Positions 1,882 to 62,125 of a stretch of DNA of 64,000 nt are shown here, one piece after another (position 1 is the stretch's first letter; each line of letters starts with the position of its first letter). The position numbers and the translations under genes are program-made. The DNA comes from a virus: positions 32,001-96,000 of the IMG/VR virus record IMGVR_UViG_3300026382_000009. One strand, written 5' to 3'. The notes below the pieces were generated by a model. That model searched no databases, was not told the origin of the DNA, and saw nothing but the letters and a program-made list of their open reading frames with translations.

Positions 1882-2703
1882 TTATGATATTTTTGAATGT
1901 AAATCAGATGTTTGTTTGTATGTTGTTCTGTATACTTTATAAGAAAGAGTTACACCAAAACTATTTGTAATATTTATATTATCTAATTGTGTATAATCAA
2001 CTCCAAATCCTGTATCTTTATCTTTCCATTCAGAAATACTTCCAAAACTATCTGGAAATAAAATATAATAATATTCTTCTTTACCACTATTTATATAATT
2101 GTAATCACCTGAAAAATCAGATTTTAGTTGAGATGAAAAATTGTTTTTAACTTCATTTTCATTAACTACAGAATTTACAGAATTACCCCAATAAACTCTT
2201 GCTCTCCAATAAACAGTGAAATTTCTACTAAATGTTTGATTTTTTGTATTTTTTGCTTCAATTTTCCAAGTATAAGAACTATTAGGTGTTGTTTTAACTT
2301 TGTCCAAACCTATATCTAAATCTTCAGTTCCATCATTTGCTAAGTTTTCGCCTAAAACAGTTGATGCATTTACATCAGTTATTTTTATTGTATTATCAAT
2401 TATATTTTCTTGATGACTAGTTGTCCATTTGAAAGTTCTGATGCCACCAGTAATTTTATCACCAACTTCTAAAATTGTTGGTTGTAAATCTATATAAAAT
2501 GAATTAAATTTTGGATATTCATAAGGATATAATATCATATTTAGAACTTCACAAGGCGTTAAACCACTAATAACTGTTCCAGATTCAAGTCCACCATGAT
2601 TTGTTGGAACAGGATCACTTTTATCCATTACACAACTTCCTGTTCCTCCACCAGATGTATTTGAACCCTTAAATTTGAAAAAATAATAAGGATTTGTTAT
2701 CAT
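1882..2703 (-). CDS. Virion structural protein, beta-rich (Ig/Fn3-like)
   Basis: T/S/N-rich beta pattern, YYYILFPDSFG motif, located in the fibre cluster. Confidence 0.45.
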   Translation of the reverse strand: MITNPYYFFKFKGSNTSGGGTGSCVMDKSDPVPTNHGGLESGTVISGLTPCEVLNMILYPYEYPKFNSFYIDLQPTILEVGDKITGGIRTFKWTTSHQENIIDNTIKITDVNASTVLGENLANDGTEDLDIGLDKVKTTPNSSYTWKIEAKNTKNQTFSRNFTVYWRARVYWGNSVNSVVNENEVKNNFSSQLKSDFSGDYNYINSGKEEYYYILFPDSFGSISEWKDKDTGFGVDYTQLDNINITNSFGVTLSYKVYRTTYKQTSDLHSKIS

Positions 2704-2712
2704 AAAATCTCC

Positions 2713-3084
2713 TTAATAACCTACAGCCATAGGTATTAATGTAATTTTAGCATCTCCTGGAGAATTTATTGTTCCACCACTAAATTTGCAATTTACTCTT
2801 AGTAATTCTTCATTTTCAGCAATTGGAATCATAATTCTATATTTACCAGATTTTGAAAAAACTTTTTTATAATTTTTAACTGTTTCAGGTGTATCTTCAT
2901 ATTGCATTGGATACCAATCATCTAATCTTTTTTCATAAACATCAAATGTTAATATTAAATTAATCTCATCACCTTTTATATAATTTACATAAATAACAAT
3001 TGTTGATTTTGATGGAACAGAACCTTTTGCTGAAGTATCTCCTTCATCAAGTAAATTATTTTTAAAATCATATATTCTTATCAT
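2713..3084 (-). CDS. Small beta-rich protein, paralog of 4086..4469
   Basis: FDVYEKRLDDWYPMQYED vs FDVFDEKLDDFYPIQYDD; both have IY+NY and GKYRI. Confidence 0.6.
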   Translation of the reverse strand: MIRIYDFKNNLLDEGDTSAKGSVPSKSTIVIYVNYIKGDEINLILTFDVYEKRLDDWYPMQYEDTPETVKNYKKVFSKSGKYRIMIPIAENEELLRVNCKFSGGTINSPGDAKITLIPMAVGY

Positions 3085-4076
3085 TTTCTTTTTCCTTTGA
3101 AAAAATTGAAAAAGTTAAAATTTTTAAGTTTATTAAATTTGTTATTATAAATATAATTTTTTATTTCTATTGTTTTAACATCAATTTTGTTTTTTATCAA
3201 ATTTAGTTCGTTTAAAAAAATAGTTTTTAATTCATTTATTCTAATAAATGTTTGATTAGAAAAAAAATCAATTTTATATAATAAAGAATTTATTTTTTCA
3301 TCTTGTTTTTCAAAATGTTGTTTTAAGTTTTTATTTTCATCAAATATTTTTTTCAAAAAATTATATTGATAATCTAGTTTGGAAAAAATTTCATTTTTAA
3401 AATCAAGTAATTTTTTAATTAAATTATTTTGTTCAATGTTTATTGAAATTATTTTCAAAAAATTAATTTCTATTCGTGAAAATAATTTTTTTATTTCTTC
3501 AAAATGATTTTTGGAATTTTCTATTAACATATTTACTAACACATTATTTTTATTTATTTTTTCAATGATTTCATTATCTTTTTTGAATAATATGTTAATT
3601 GTTTCATTTTTTGAATTTTCTATTGATTTCTCAATTTTTTCTACATTTTCTTCTAGTTTTTTAATTTTTTCAATTTTTCTAAATAGAACTTTAAAATTTG
3701 TGTTTATACTCTCATTTAATGATAAAAATTGTTCTTTAAGTTGAGAAACATCATTTTTTATTAATTCATGAGATTTTTCAATAAAAGCTAACTTTTCTTT
3801 GAGAATTTGTTGATTTTTTTCAAGTTCTTTGAATTTGTCTAATTTTTCTATTTTTCTAAGAATTTCTGTATTTTTTAATTCATTTGCAAGATTTTTTTCA
3901 ATTTTGTTTAAATTATCATCAATTTTATTAATTTCTATTTTTAATTCATTTATTTTTGATAAAAATAAGTTTTCGGAGAGATTTTTGTAATTTTTATTAT
4001 TTTCATCGTTTTTTATAAATTTTTCATCATTTTTTTCATTTGATGGATTTTTATCAATTTTCATTGTTTTAATCAT
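3081..4076 (-). CDS. Coiled-coil protein of unknown function
   Basis: K/E/N/I/L-rich heptad pattern; RBS AAAGGA; ATGA overlap with next gene. Confidence 0.5.
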   Translation of the reverse strand: MIKTMKIDKNPSNEKNDEKFIKNDENNKNYKNLSENLFLSKINELKIEINKIDDNLNKIEKNLANELKNTEILRKIEKLDKFKELEKNQQILKEKLAFIEKSHELIKNDVSQLKEQFLSLNESINTNFKVLFRKIEKIKKLEENVEKIEKSIENSKNETINILFKKDNEIIEKINKNNVLVNMLIENSKNHFEEIKKLFSRIEINFLKIISINIEQNNLIKKLLDFKNEIFSKLDYQYNFLKKIFDENKNLKQHFEKQDEKINSLLYKIDFFSNQTFIRINELKTIFLNELNLIKNKIDVKTIEIKNYIYNNKFNKLKNFNFFNFFKGKRK

Positions 4077-38517: not shown

Positions 38518-38824
38518 TGTTATTCCTTTTTAAATAGTCTAATTCATTTAACATTTCTTTAATTGTATTGATAATTTCTTTATTTCCTTCTACTTCAGCT
38601 TTTTCAACAAATTCATATAAAACATGTATTAATCCATTAACAATAACAAAATCATTAAATGTTATAGCTTTTAAAAAATTAACAAAATTTTCCATGTATT
38701 CAAAAATATCAGTATCAGAATTAAAAGAGAAATTAATCTCTTTATCATTCATTTTGTAATTAAAAATTACTCTTCCATTTTCCATTGTTTCTCCTTTAAC
38801 TTGAGCAACTTTCGCAGACATCAT
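38510..38824 (-). CDS. Hypothetical protein (likely start MENGRV)
   Basis: AAAGGAG before the internal Met; E.FVNFLKAITF motif. Confidence 0.5.
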   Translation of the reverse strand: MMSAKVAQVKGETMENGRVIFNYKMNDKEINFSFNSDTDIFEYMENFVNFLKAITFNDFVIVNGLIHVLYEFVEKAEVEGNKEIINTIKEMLNELDYLKRNNNE

Positions 38825-41534
38825 TATCTGTTTCAGCTTTTAAACTATTCATATAATATAATGTCTTAACTCCTAAACTTTCAGCAAATATAATATCTTC
38901 TATAATTTCAAAAGCACTTTCAGGATTTTTGTAATAAAGATTTACTGATTGTGATTGGTCTAAAAATTTTTGTCTAATTGCTGCAAGTTCTATAAGACGC
39001 TTTTGTGGAATATCCCAAGCCAATTCATAATACATTCTATTTTTATTTAGATTAGGTGCTAAAAATGGTAATGTATATGTTCCTTCTTTTATTATTTTGT
39101 ATTGTCTAATTGGTTCTATTCCTTCTGTGCTTGAAATGACTAATCCAGAAGTATTATGACTGATACATCCATTACTTAATACATATTCTTCATATTCAGG
39201 AACATGTATATCCCAGGTTGGTTCAACACCTACTTTTTTAACTGATTTAACTCCTAATAATAAATTATTTTGTTGTTTAATATTATCCCCATCTTCTAAA
39301 TCCTTTACTTGTTTCCAAATTAATTTGTCATCCTCTGTTTCAACAAGCAATAAATGGTTACCTGTAAATTTATATTTATTTCCATCTTCAAATTCTACTT
39401 CATAAACTTCTCTTTTTCCATTATAATATATTTTATTAGTTTCTTTATAACCAAATCTTGTTTTTACATTAATAGGGGATTTTAATTCATACCAACCAAG
39501 AACTTCTAAGTTTTCTATTGTTTTGTAATCAATACCTCCTTCTTCAAGAATTTCTTGAATTGATTTGATACCATCTTTAGTTATTATCTCATTTTCTTTT
39601 GATTGGCATTGTGTAGGCGCTATTGCAAATAAATTTTCAAATCTTATTCCAAATTCTTTGAGTTCTTTTCTTAAACTTTCCCAATCTTTTTTCATTTCAA
39701 AATTATATTTTTCTGGAAGTTTACTCAATTCCCAAGGAAATAAACCTTTATCCCAAGATGTTCCAGAAATTCCCTTATATTTTCCTCTTTCTTTAGCTAA
39801 TCTTATTGCTTGCTTGATAAAATGATATGTCAAATCTTCAAATAATTCGTGTGTAAATCTTAAAACTTCATCATCAGTAAATTTTATACCTTTACTCGCT
39901 AATAGATTTGCATAATTATTTACACCTATTCCTATACTTCTTAAATCTCTATTAAATTTTTCACCTAAACGAACTTTGTATTTTGCTACATCAAATGCAT
40001 TGTCCATACCTAATAAAATACTATAAGCTAATTCATCTTTTTCTTCTTCTGTCATTTCATACCATTTAACTAAATTAACAGAAGAAAGATTACAAATACC
40101 TATCAAACCATCATATTTTCTTACATTTATCCATTTATCATTATCTGAATCTTTAATTAACTTATCTTCTATAAGTCTAATAGGTTTTGTTCTAACAGTC
40201 ACCTCCATGCAGAGATTACTCATTTTTATAACATCAGGTGATACTCTCTGTTCATTTACATTATCCATACTCATCCAATAAATATTTCCTGTCTCACTTC
40301 TAACTTTAGCATAAAGAAATGCTAATTCTCTTGCTTTAATTTTTCTTTTTCTGATACCAGGTTTTTTAGAATAATAATCATACCACTTATCAAATTCATC
40401 ACCGTATGCTTCTACTAACTCAGGAGTATCTAAAGGATCAAATAAAAATACTTCTTCATCATTTATAATAGCTTCAGAAAATCTTCTATTCCATTTCATT
40501 GTATATTTTAATTTTCTAGCTCTTTCTTCATCAGCACCACCAGCATCTCTTAACATAATTATTTCTGGTGACTCATAATGCCACCAAGCAAAATTAACAA
40601 CCGCTGCACCACTTCTAACACCTCTTTGATTAAATGATGAAATAACACTTTCAAATAATTTAATAAAATAAATAACTCCAGATGTTTTTCCGACTAAATC
40701 TACAATTGCTCCTATAGCTCTTAACAATGTAACATCTATTCCTATTCCACTTCCATATTTAGAATAAATACCCATACTTCTTGCTACTTCTAAAATACTT
40801 TCAGAATCATCATCTACTTCTATTAAAACACAACTTGTTGGATTAAAAACTCTTTCTAAAGCATTCACTATCATAGGTGTAGGAGCAGTAAATTTATGTA
40901 AAGATAAATCATCGTATTTTCTTTTAATTGTTTCTAATCTGTTTTTATCTTTATAATGTAATTGAATAGCAACAGCCATATATCTATGTTGAGGCAATTC
41001 TAAAAATTTTGTTTTACTGTATTTTTTAGCATATTTCTGCATAAACAATTCAAATCCACCAAACGTAAAAAGAAAATCTCTTTCTGGTTTAATATAATCT
41101 CCAAGTTCTTTTAATTCTTCTTCTGTAAAAGTGTCAAAAATTTCTTTATTATAAACCTTGTATTGAATTCCTTTTTGAATAACATCTAAGTAATTAGGAT
41201 ATTCATTTCTACTTACATTCCAAACTTCTTTTCTATATCTCAATATCAATAAATTTTTTGCTATATCATCCCAAACAGGATATAAATCAGAAATAAAATT
41301 TGCACATGTTTCAATTACTTCATCTAATAATTTAATAACTGAAATTTTATTTCCTATTTTCAAATTAATTGCATTTAATACGTCTTTAACAAAAGTATCA
41401 TCATATGGTTCTTGTATGCCTGCTTTATTTACAGCCCATTTAATGACTTTATAAAGTTTTTCTTCAGAATAAGGTTCTTCTCTTCCATCTCTTTTTATGA
41501 CAATATGTTTTTTTCCTTCTTTTAATTCGATCAT
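38796..41534 (-). CDS. nrdA: Ribonucleotide reductase class Ia alpha subunit with ATP cone and intein
   Basis: VIKRDG ATP cone, TSCVL, QRGVRSG, SNLCME, ICNL.SVNL, AIAPT, DQSQS.N, KTLYY, C-terminal CESC. Confidence 0.95.
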   Translation of the reverse strand: MIELKEGKKHIVIKRDGREEPYSEEKLYKVIKWAVNKAGIQEPYDDTFVKDVLNAINLKIGNKISVIKLLDEVIETCANFISDLYPVWDDIAKNLLILRYRKEVWNVSRNEYPNYLDVIQKGIQYKVYNKEIFDTFTEEELKELGDYIKPERDFLFTFGGFELFMQKYAKKYSKTKFLELPQHRYMAVAIQLHYKDKNRLETIKRKYDDLSLHKFTAPTPMIVNALERVFNPTSCVLIEVDDDSESILEVARSMGIYSKYGSGIGIDVTLLRAIGAIVDLVGKTSGVIYFIKLFESVISSFNQRGVRSGAAVVNFAWWHYESPEIIMLRDAGGADEERARKLKYTMKWNRRFSEAIINDEEVFLFDPLDTPELVEAYGDEFDKWYDYYSKKPGIRKRKIKARELAFLYAKVRSETGNIYWMSMDNVNEQRVSPDVIKMSNLCMEVTVRTKPIRLIEDKLIKDSDNDKWINVRKYDGLIGICNLSSVNLVKWYEMTEEEKDELAYSILLGMDNAFDVAKYKVRLGEKFNRDLRSIGIGVNNYANLLASKGIKFTDDEVLRFTHELFEDLTYHFIKQAIRLAKERGKYKGISGTSWDKGLFPWELSKLPEKYNFEMKKDWESLRKELKEFGIRFENLFAIAPTQCQSKENEIITKDGIKSIQEILEEGGIDYKTIENLEVLGWYELKSPINVKTRFGYKETNKIYYNGKREVYEVEFEDGNKYKFTGNHLLLVETEDDKLIWKQVKDLEDGDNIKQQNNLLLGVKSVKKVGVEPTWDIHVPEYEEYVLSNGCISHNTSGLVISSTEGIEPIRQYKIIKEGTYTLPFLAPNLNKNRMYYELAWDIPQKRLIELAAIRQKFLDQSQSVNLYYKNPESAFEIIEDIIFAESLGVKTLYYMNSLKAETDNDVCESCSS
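39153..39608 (-). mobile_element. Mini-intein (152 aa, no homing endonuclease) in NrdA
   Basis: AIAPTQ|CQSKENEI...FTGNH (block B)...TWDIHV...SNGCISHN|TSGL; removal restores AIAPTQTSGL..STEGIEP. Confidence 0.92.
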
Positions 41535-58333: not shown

Positions 58334-59926
58334 TTAATCTCCTATTTGAATTTCTTTTTCTATAATAGGATAAGAATTTTGTAAATACAAATTAATTCTT
58401 TCATCTGCATGTTTTAGTATATAATTTTTCTTTTTTCTACAACTTGTAAAATCATCTACATAATCAAAAATTTTAACTTTTTCTTTTGACTCATGTTGAC
58501 GCATTCCTCTTCCAATACTTTGATTAAGAATTATAAAAGATTTAATACTAGAAACCAAATGTATATTATGAATTTTCTTTATATTAACTCCCGTTGATAA
58601 TGTTCCAAATGTTGCAATTAATATACCACCATCTTTTAATTCAAACATTTTTCTTATTTCTTCTCTTTTTTCTCCTTTTACATCACCTCTAATAAAGAAA
58701 ATGTTCAAATCATCTAAAACAATAATTTTATCATGTTTTACATCATTTTTTATAAGATTTCTTGATTGAATAATATAATATTTTGAATTGTCTTTTATAG
58801 ATTTGATTTCTTTTTTATAAATTAAATCTTCATTAGGAACATCTAAATTTAATTTTAATTTAATAATTTCTTTTAACAAAGTTTCACCATGAGTAATTTT
58901 ATTATAAAGAATTAAATTATTTTCTTTTTTGTTTAAAGAAAGTTTATTTACTATTTTAGCTATAAAAATGTTTCTTACATTCAAATCTTCTATAAATTTA
59001 ACTTCTTGTTGATACGTTTTACATTTTTGCCAAAATTCTTTACAAATCTCCTTATTGTAATTTAAAAAGAACATGACAACTTCAACAGGTGTAGCATATC
59101 CTTGATTAATAAGTTCTTGAGGAGTAATAATTGTGATAGGTTTACCCAATGTTGAAAGAAGTGTAAATTTATCTACACTGTTCTGAGGGAGTGTTCCTGT
59201 TAAACCTATTTTATATTCAGCATTTACAGAAGCTTTAAGTATTTTATTAAGAGAATCAGATTTTGCAACATGAGATTCATCAATTATGACAAAATTAGCT
59301 TTAGGTAATAAATGCATAGCATTTTTCAAACTTTGCCAAGTTGATATAACAACATCCTTTTTAAACTCTTTTTCTTTTCCTGAATAAATTTTATGAATGT
59401 ATTTATCTAAATCTTTCCAACCATATTCTTTAAAATCACTATACATTTGTTCTACAAGATTTATTGTTGGAACAACTAAAACACCTTTTAATCCTTTGGA
59501 TAAAAGATATCTAATAATTACATACAAAACAAAACTTTTACCTGAATTATGATGAACTATGTTATTTTGAACATAACACTCTTCTTCAAAATCAATATTG
59601 AAATCAATCCATTCTTGCTTTTTTAAATCTTCAATTGAAACAATTTTTTTTGTGTCAAACAAATTACCTTTTAGTATTTCATCTCCTATTTTTAAATTTG
59701 AAGAAGACTCCCAAATTGGTTTATTTTTATCTTTTTTTAATAAAAAATGTGTAATAGAACATTTTATTGATGAACCATCATCAAATGTAATTTTTTTACC
59801 ATCTAAATCTTTTTTAATAAAATAATCATTTATTTTTTTAAATCCAAATGGTGTTTCAATTTTTACATTTTTTCCTTGTTTTATTAATTCAACAATTTCA
59901 CCAAAAGTTCTTTCTTCTATTTTCAT
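58334..59926 (-). CDS. uvsW: IntC (127 aa) + C-terminal part of UvsW SF2 helicase
   Basis: ...VHHN|SGKS, LVVPTINLVEQMYSDF, STWQS, IDESH, GLTGT, STGVNI, QSIGRGMR. Confidence 0.9.
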   Translation of the reverse strand: MKIEERTFGEIVELIKQGKNVKIETPFGFKKINDYFIKKDLDGKKITFDDGSSIKCSITHFLLKKDKNKPIWESSSNLKIGDEILKGNLFDTKKIVSIEDLKKQEWIDFNIDFEEECYVQNNIVHHNSGKSFVLYVIIRYLLSKGLKGVLVVPTINLVEQMYSDFKEYGWKDLDKYIHKIYSGKEKEFKKDVVISTWQSLKNAMHLLPKANFVIIDESHVAKSDSLNKILKASVNAEYKIGLTGTLPQNSVDKFTLLSTLGKPITIITPQELINQGYATPVEVVMFFLNYNKEICKEFWQKCKTYQQEVKFIEDLNVRNIFIAKIVNKLSLNKKENNLILYNKITHGETLLKEIIKLKLNLDVPNEDLIYKKEIKSIKDNSKYYIIQSRNLIKNDVKHDKIIVLDDLNIFFIRGDVKGEKREEIRKMFELKDGGILIATFGTLSTGVNIKKIHNIHLVSSIKSFIILNQSIGRGMRQHESKEKVKIFDYVDDFTSCRKKKNYILKHADERINLYLQNSYPIIEKEIQIGD

Positions 59927-59994
59927 ATTAACTCCTATAAATTTTTATGTTAATCTTCAATTATAACTCTTATTTTTTCATTTTTATCTAGACA
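59546..59994 (-). mobile_element. Atypically split intein in UvsW Walker A (IntN 59953-59994, IntC 59546-59926)
   Basis: SATG|CLDKNEKIRVIIED* then RBS AGGAG and M...KCSITH...WIDF...NNIVHHN|SGKS. Confidence 0.9.
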
Positions 59995-60438
59995 ACCTGT
60001 TGCAGAAATAAGAATACAATTTTTATTATTTATAGCTTCAACAATAGCTTTTATTTGATAATCTCTTGGTTTAAATGGTGGATTTAATGAGTTAATGAAT
60101 TCTTTAATTTCTTCTTCAGTTACTTTTTCATTATTTGAATCTATATTTTCGTATTCAAATTCTGGAAATTTATTTAAAATTAATTTTACTAATCCTCTTG
60201 GTATTATCATTCCAGATGGTGTTAAAGAATAAAATTTCTTCTTTCCATCCCATAAACCTGCTCTAAAAGCAGGTGTAAATCTATATCCATCAACATAAAT
60301 TGAAAGCATATTCATGAGTTTTAACCGTAATTCCATTCCTTCTTCAGTATTAGGAATTTCTATTAAAGAATATGAATAATTTATATCTTTTATTTTCACA
60401 TTAATCCTTTGATTTAGAATTTTAACCTTTATATCCAA
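59950..60438 (-). CDS. uvsW: N-terminal part of UvsW + 14-aa IntN
   Basis: GYRFTPAFRAGLWDGK, PRDYQ (Q motif), ISATG|C. Confidence 0.9.
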   Translation of the reverse strand: MDIKVKILNQRINVKIKDINYSYSLIEIPNTEEGMELRLKLMNMLSIYVDGYRFTPAFRAGLWDGKKKFYSLTPSGMIIPRGLVKLILNKFPEFEYENIDSNNEKVTEEEIKEFINSLNPPFKPRDYQIKAIVEAINNKNCILISATGCLDKNEKIRVIIED

Positions 60439-60727: not shown

Positions 60728-62125
60728 TTATTTTATTCCTAAAATTGATTTCTCAATTTCAATACATTTTTCATACGAATCGGCTTCATCTTTATCTTCT
60801 CTAATACATACAAAACTTGGATGTAAAAGAGCTTCTACTTTTCCATCTTTCCAAGATAATCCTCTACAATTAATTGTTGCAATTTTACCAATTAACTTGT
60901 CTTTATGTTTAGTAATATAATTCATGTCTTCTTCTGTTAAACCTCCAGCTTTAACTTTTATTTTACCATCAGAACTTTCAGCTATAACTCTGTTAATAAA
61001 ATTTTCATATTTTGTTCCTGGTGTGCCATATTCAAAACCAATAATTTTAAAATCAACATCAAAATTTATTTTAATTTTTATTTGATAATCAGGTTTTTTA
61101 TTTATAAATTTCCCATATTTACTTTTAACAACAGTTCCTTCTCCACCTCTTTGAAAAATTTCTTTAAAATGTTCTATAACTTCTTCTTTTATTTTTACAG
61201 GTCTAGTAGAAATTTCTAAAATATTATCTGTTTGCCACAAACATTCTTTTAAATTTGAATATCTTTTGTAATAAGGAATTTCACAATATCCTTTGCTCCA
61301 ATCTTTGAAAGGAATTATATCCCAAGCAACAATATAAATATCTTTTAAAAATTCAGATGGTTTTTTTCCATATTTTTCAATAAATGCTTTAATATCTTTT
61401 TCTTTTAATTTTCCTTCTTTCTTTTTAGACAAAAGTGTTTTTATTGAATTAATTAATCCATTAGCTTTATATCTATCAAAATTTTTAACAAGAATCTCAC
61501 CAGTAATAACAAATTCATCATAAACAGGTGAAAAATAATTGTGTTTAAAAGCCCTTTCTAAATGTAAATCTTTTCCATTTCTCGCAAATGTTCTTAATTC
61601 TCCTGTTTCACAATTATAATAGAGGTTACAAAACATTCCATCAAGCTTTTCTTGTGACCAAACTTCACCTTCTTCAAGAAGTTTTTCAAGTTTTTTCATA
61701 TTAAAAGGAATTGCTCCCATATATGAAGTAATTGGTATAAAATTTTCAAATACTTTGTTTATTAATTTAGCATTAATACCTATTTTAAAATCTTTTTGAA
61801 GAATTCCATCAAATACCCAAGCATCGTGTTCATCAAGCTTTTGATATAAATATTCAACTTCATTTCTTGCAGCATTTCCTGTAATTTTTCTTAATCTTAA
61901 ATTATCTAAAGTATCAAATATAATATGACTTGAATGCTCTAAAGTAATTTCACCTTTATTTGGAAGTTTATCATATTTTTTAACATAGTATTGATAAAAT
62001 GGATTATAAGCGTAAAATAAAACTTTTTTAAGAAGATCATTATCTTTATGTTGTTTAAGTATCTCTTGTTTTTTGTTAGTAGAAGAAGTTTCTTTTATTT
62101 GTTGTAGAATTTCATAAACTTTCAT
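60728..62125 (-). CDS. gp30: ATP-dependent DNA ligase
   Basis: QEKLDG, ARNG, GEI, WDI, EGTVVK, KIK, HPSF..IREDK. Confidence 0.92.
   Translation of the reverse strand: MKVYEILQQIKETSSTNKKQEILKQHKDNDLLKKVLFYAYNPFYQYYVKKYDKLPNKGEITLEHSSHIIFDTLDNLRLRKITGNAARNEVEYLYQKLDEHDAWVFDGILQKDFKIGINAKLINKVFENFIPITSYMGAIPFNMKKLEKLLEEGEVWSQEKLDGMFCNLYYNCETGELRTFARNGKDLHLERAFKHNYFSPVYDEFVITGEILVKNFDRYKANGLINSIKTLLSKKKEGKLKEKDIKAFIEKYGKKPSEFLKDIYIVAWDIIPFKDWSKGYCEIPYYKRYSNLKECLWQTDNILEISTRPVKIKEEVIEHFKEIFQRGGEGTVVKSKYGKFINKKPDYQIKIKINFDVDFKIIGFEYGTPGTKYENFINRVIAESSDGKIKVKAGGLTEEDMNYITKHKDKLIGKIATINCRGLSWKDGKVEALLHPSFVCIREDKDEADSYEKCIEIEKSILGIK

Follow-up and report, generated by a model that had tools for sequence, protein, structure and literature searches.

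Why does a T4-like phage carry its UvsW repair helicase as two genes, and how could their products yield one enzyme? The question is raised by the minus strand of the window, a 64,000-nt stretch from an uncultured, AT-rich (about 22% GC) T4-like phage (positions 32,001 to 96,000 of IMG/VR record IMGVR_UViG_3300026382_000009), in which two adjacent ORFs, 59950..60438 and then 58334..59926, together encode UvsW (Table 1). In our reading, which we hold with a probability of roughly 85%, the single uvsW of this phage is split into two genes by an S1-type intein and the two halves are joined by trans-splicing. A first-pass annotation of the same DNA had proposed a naturally and atypically split intein in UvsW, and matches to PDB sequences, the AlphaFold2 fold, and the alignment of the S1 site bear this proposal out.

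The gene anatomy is as that annotation described it. The upstream gene ends in ISATG, 14 further residues, and a stop codon, a 23-nt gap with an AGGAG ribosome binding site (RBS) puts the downstream ORF out of frame relative to the upstream one, and the downstream gene (530 aa) opens with 127 aa that end in HHN and are followed by SGKS and the SF2 core. No ORF lies between the gene halves, which agrees with the reported lack of a homing endonuclease at this point, and the 127-aa C-terminal intein fragment (IntC) is too small for a nested endonuclease. The 5′ end of the upstream gene needs revision. It had been drawn from TTG 60438, a mechanical alternative start, but most likely lies at GTG 60399, since this codon is preceded by an AAGGA RBS and, just upstream, by the stop codon of the preceding gene, and agrees with the starts of homologs and with the 149-aa product predicted by gene callers. 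A promoter and terminator scan of the locus gave counts at the level of shuffled sequence and no terminator-like site, and the GC profile has no compositional island at the intein. The 465-aa ORF immediately upstream of the two uvsW genes (60728-62125, minus strand) contains EKLDG, a KxDG-type motif, and encodes a putative ATP-dependent DNA ligase.

Table 1. Features of the split uvsW locus, in window positions.
Feature	Position	Strand	Evidence or remark
Upstream ORF	59950..60438	-	3′ end reads ...ISATG-CLDKNEKIRVIIED-TAA
N-extein (UvsW N-terminal domain and helicase motif Q region, ending ...SATG, the first half of Walker A)	59995..60399	-	Pfam UvsW_N, T4 UvsW, phrog_16259
IntN, 14 codons (Cys1 at 59992-59994 and 13 residues; strands β1-β2 of the HINT fold)	59953..59994	-	Sequence, homolog alignment
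Stop codon TAA closing IntN	59950-59952	-	Sequence
Intergenic gap, 23 nt (RBS AGGAG at 59932-59936, 5 nt ahead of the ATG)	59927..59949	-	Sequence
IntC, 127 aa (β3, α1, block B His60, block F W106/D108, block G H126-N127)	59546..59926	-	PDB matches, AlphaFold2, Foldseek, VIA-align
C-extein (Ser+1, GKS as the second half of Walker A, remaining SF2 helicase core; 403 aa and stop)	58334..59545	-	T4 UvsW, Pfam, phrog_16259

Both fragments are recognizable as parts of one helicase. The N-fragment matches Pfam UvsW_N (PF21241; 35.1 bits, cut-off 25.3) and aligns with residues 24-135 of the T4 UvsW structures (1RIF/2OCA), and the C-fragment matches Pfam ResIII, DEAD, and Helicase_C and covers both RecA-like domains of T4 UvsW (2OCA; E-value 1.9e-42) from chain residue 138 onward. 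On the phrog_16259 profile, the N-fragment occupies positions 3-142 and the C-fragment positions 142-267. The neighboring end points on T4 UvsW (135 and 138) and the continuity of the profile at position 142 indicate that the exteins abut inside the Walker A motif without loss, and joining SATG to SGKS restores the P-loop, as the first-pass annotation had stated. Its further claim that functional UvsW should need trans-splicing is strengthened by the virus record (109 kb, with direct terminal repeats), where this is the single UvsW found. The CheckV completeness of the record is 57%, so that a second, intact uvsW could lie beyond it.

The intervening residues have the sequence and predicted fold of an intein. 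Among PDB sequences, IntC is most similar to CatC (E-value 1.2e-5), followed by gp41-1 (7e-5) and VidaL (4e-3). The AlphaFold2 model of IntC, based on a 50-sequence alignment, has a pLDDT of 95.3; its top-ranked Foldseek matches are all inteins, and its best 50 VIA-align matches are all HINT domains (intein, BIL, and hedgehog autoprocessing domains) with Z-scores of 12.8-17.2. The best of these is the naturally split intein VidaL (6VGV; Z 17.2, rmsd 1.5 Å over 121 residues). Inteins of the VidaL type have reportedly been listed under names such as T4Lh and UvsX. Residue 1-2 of the IntC model aligns with residues 11-15 of canonical inteins, and on the fused chain of VidaL the counterpart of IntC residue 1 is residue 20. 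The former position indicates that IntC lacks only the first two strands, or the first ~14 residues, as a 14-residue N-terminal intein fragment (IntN) would supply.

The residues expected of a splicing intein are present on both polypeptides. The Cys codon directly follows the extein residues ATG and aligns with Cys1 of contiguous homologs, His60 of block B is invariant across the 50 sequences, W106, D108, H125, H126, and N127 each reach at least 90% conservation, and Ser+1 stands directly after N127. The motif CSITH had been assigned to block B, which is right as to the invariant His inside it, but the canonical Thr position is held by Ser, likewise in gp41-1 and Cat. The Pfam model Intein_splicing scores the C-fragment at 22.8 bits (E-value 8.8e-5), below its cut-off of 35.8, as expected because the N-terminal part of the model sits on the other polypeptide. 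A word-index homolog search with IntC recovered the query alone, a related-locus search with IntC alone found nothing, and tblastn against cultured-phage records found only distant TerL and UvsX/RecA inteins and no isolated phage with this intein.

An exhaustive HMMER search yielded 108 cluster representatives, 45 of which begin at residue 1 with a homologous IntC followed by a [ST]GK[ST] P-loop, while 24 are contiguous inteins. The recurrence of an N-terminal IntC ahead of a P-loop in 45 representatives means that the split is no chance pattern; as judged from these sequences, the split architecture is shared by at least 45 clusters and is widespread in metagenomes. When IntN and IntC of the window locus and of six other split loci were aligned with 17 contiguous homologs, the break fell in the turn after β2 (the β2/β3 turn) with zero residues lost, and IntN aligned with the first 14 residues of the contiguous homologs. 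In the AlphaFold2 model of the contiguous homolog P0064 (Cys133), the residues equivalent to IntN form β1/β2, with β2 at 139-144, a turn at 145-147 that corresponds to the split point, β3 at 148-153, and α1 at 154-163. Split L006 (14+118 aa; L006:1359-3413) and contiguous L007 (131 aa; L007:465-) are 71% identical, which indicates that the same UvsW intein lineage exists in both states, and the two form a natural before-and-after pair for the splitting event. Some members of the family, split (L003, L005, and the L002/L004 N-fragments) and contiguous (P0015, P0052, P0067, and P0068), have a helical-looking insertion of 15-30 residues exactly at the S1 turn, and in several split loci the break comes after this insertion, which results in an IntN of 26-45 aa.

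The UvsW intein is thus an S1-type atypically split intein of the VidaL/PolB16 class and not of the S2 type represented by the AceL and GOS TerL inteins. VidaL (PDB 6VGV/6VGW; Burton et al., 2020, cited in PMC13014065) has the same split after β2, Cys1, a short IntN, and an IntC of ~120 aa, and its C-extein likewise begins with the SGK of a P-loop; of all structural matches it comes closest to UvsW IntC, yet the two are only ~24% identical in sequence. The IntN of VidaL has 16 aa rather than 14, its IntC ends in SHN rather than HHN, and its splicing has been demonstrated, whereas splicing of the UvsW intein is predicted from sequence and fold. PolB16 OarG is also a natural S1-type atypical split intein, and its IntN of 15 aa is likewise very short, but it is cysteine-less (Ser1) and resides in a DNA polymerase, in contrast to the UvsW intein with Cys1/Ser+1, a helicase host, and an IntN one residue shorter (PMC10189870). 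AceL-TerL and GOS-TerL, together with the consensus Cat (PDB 6DSL), whose C-terminal fragment CatC is the best match to UvsW IntC among PDB sequences, are phage-derived, atypically split, and located at a P-loop as well; they differ in the S2 split after α1, an IntN of 25-37 aa, and the large terminase as host (PMC13014065). Contiguous UvsW P-loop mini-inteins of metagenomic phages (P0064, P0020, and L007 among them) share the insertion point TG/SGKS, the intein family (28-49% identity), and the pattern of the first 14 residues (C-L-D-x...), but are single polypeptides that splice in cis, whereas the window locus is cut in the β2/β3 turn.

Since UvsW also harbours contiguous members of this intein family, the break could in principle be an assembly or sequencing artefact, in which an indel in a truly contiguous intein made a false stop and restart. 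Such an artefact would, however, have to combine two changes: the TAA must disappear, and the frame must shift across 26 inserted nt bearing a canonical RBS and an ATG. Because the stop codon and the frame change both separate the halves, the split is beyond what a simple indel could produce. The break also recurs in other assemblies: an N-fragment on another JGI contig (P0112), 88% identical to that of the window, stops at the same codon and has the same 14-residue tail except for one Ile replaced by Val, the IntC-UvsW gene of IMG/VR locus L001 (85% identical) conserves the RBS-ATG context in which IntC starts, independent 14-aa tails occur at the matching position in L006 and L017, and whole genes occupy the split point in relatives. 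For the proteins of the window itself, records exist from two contigs. We therefore regard an artefact as highly improbable. It is scarcely credible that the two ORFs are joined in translation, by ribosomal bypass or frameshift, to give a contiguous intein that splices in cis. The gap is short (23 nt) and T4 gene 60 provides a precedent for translational bypassing, but the gap carries its own strong RBS and ATG, and at this point homologous loci hold genes of 0.3-1.1 kb, in part on the opposite strand, an arrangement that leaves separate translation as the only route.

Slow or extein-dependent splicing occurs among natural split inteins (PMC13014065, PMC11766414), and the locus could accordingly be a decayed remnant from which both proteins are made without splicing, leaving UvsW either inactive or held in a non-covalent complex through the intein halves. 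We consider this unlikely, as every catalytic position is conserved and the intein is under purifying selection near that on its host protein, with an omega of about 0.14 for IntC (dN/dS 0.138, dS 0.47) and 0.086 for the extein in comparison with L001. An unspliced P-loop would moreover hold 141 foreign residues inside GxGKS, in the only UvsW of the record. We regard the split intein as genuine and selectively maintained in the sole known UvsW of the phage.

Trans-splicing of the two UvsW halves could then proceed as follows. The uvsW gene is interrupted by a class-1 mini-intein whose insertion point, between ATG and SGKS, lies in the Walker A P-loop, and the intein is itself broken into two genes at S1, the turn after β2. 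The two genes are probably co-transcribed, and their translation starts at separate RBSs. IntN, the 14-residue tail of the first protein, would dock as β1-β2 into the otherwise complete HINT domain that starts the second, after which Cys1 would make a thioester, Ser+1 would attack it, and Asn127 would cyclise, releasing a UvsW of ~538 aa with an intact P-loop. UvsW would thereby join the phage proteins of replication and repair whose assembly requires trans-splicing.

The length of IntN had been presented as lying at or beyond the natural limit, given as about 15-16 aa. This figure agrees with the literature: IntN lengths of natural atypically split inteins are stated as 15-37 aa, with 16 aa for VidaL, and the 15-aa IntN of PolB16 OarG has been called the ‘shortest characterized’ to date (PMC13014065; Pasch et al., 2023, PMC10189870). 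The claim of a limit, on the other hand, does not survive comparison with uncultured phages. A single IMG/VR scan for the HHN/SGKS junction provided an IntN length census of 13 IMG/VR loci, in which UvsW split inteins have an IntN of 14 (L006 and L017), 26 (L002 and L004), 28 (L005), 45 (L003), or about 31 aa (L008), and RecA split inteins have one of 15 (L019), 14 (L041), or 13 aa (L031 and L043-45). The 14-aa IntN is therefore one residue under the published record, yet ordinary among uncultured phages. In the phage RecA genes with a 13-residue IntN, a length below all characterised natural ones, the S1-type split intein sits at the P-loop (L031:288-578 with 1923-3659; L043:270-566 with 1917-3206; also L044 and L045), and a gene of ~430-450 aa separates the halves, matching endonuclease PHROG 15427 in L031.

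Most of the split relatives have a gene between the halves. Homing-endonuclease PHROG 3339 or Vsr-like genes occupy the split point in L003 and L008, and endonuclease PHROG 15427 genes do so in L019 and L031. In L001, the closest relative of the window locus, an opposite-strand ORF with no Pfam, PHROG, or PDB match adjoins the IntC gene; it is 37% identical (1e-18) to the intervening ORF of L017, to which that of L005 is also related (30%, 1e-11). The L005 ORF has no Pfam or PHROG match, and the L017 ORF matches only PHROGs of unknown function. An unannotated family, always on the opposite strand, is thus located at the split point of three UvsW loci (L001:3-722(-), L017:839-2002(-), and L005:186-1214(-)) and is absent from the genome of the window phage; its members are candidate new mobile, endonuclease-like genes.

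The term fractured gene has been used for phage genes of DNA metabolism that are interrupted by a split intein with a free-standing homing endonuclease (Dassa et al., 2009; PMC2677866), and the window locus resembles these in its host gene and in the intervening endonuclease-like genes of its relatives. The published fractured genes differ in having the canonical split site and a long IntN, and the eight hosts listed there exclude UvsW (PMC2677866). With only 23 nt between its halves, the window locus lacks the endonuclease gene that marks a fractured gene, and in view of its relatives it represents a gene-free form of this arrangement (PMC2677866). The split probably arose by the fractured-gene route, in which a free-standing endonuclease-like gene inserts at the site, as is still seen in relatives, and at the window locus such a gene may have been lost or may never have been acquired by this allele. 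Alleles with and without an intervening gene provide a clean pair for studying how inteins become split.

Split inteins with a short IntN are sought after for protein ligation, as so small a fragment is accessible to peptide synthesis, and the window locus and its relatives with 13-15 residues, in UvsW and RecA, point to a much larger natural supply of candidates for such tools, shorter ones included. A view of the finding as exceptional is not supported: the architecture is widespread in metagenomes, and an artificial 11-aa IntN (M86) is already in use (PMC13014065, PMC10189870). The UvsW split intein is one more member of a large, already known kind, and it leaves the mechanistic understanding of splicing unchanged. 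It is possible, though doubtful, that the 14+127-aa pair, with Cys1/Ser+1 and no endonuclease, is an efficient natural trans-splicing system with the shortest IntN relative to the characterised natural ones and orthogonal to VidaL and Cat, and hence a new semisynthesis tool, and that S1 is at the same time a recurrent natural break point served by the undescribed, probably mobile gene family of L001, L005, and L017.

The same phage carries another intein in its ribonucleotide reductase large subunit (912 aa, ORF 38796..41534), where a contiguous 152-aa mini-intein is located at 39153-39608 on the minus strand (APTQ/C...SHN/TSG). It is a distant relative of the UvsW IntC (26% identity, E-value 1.2e-8) and brings the inteins of the phage to two, of which only the UvsW intein is split.
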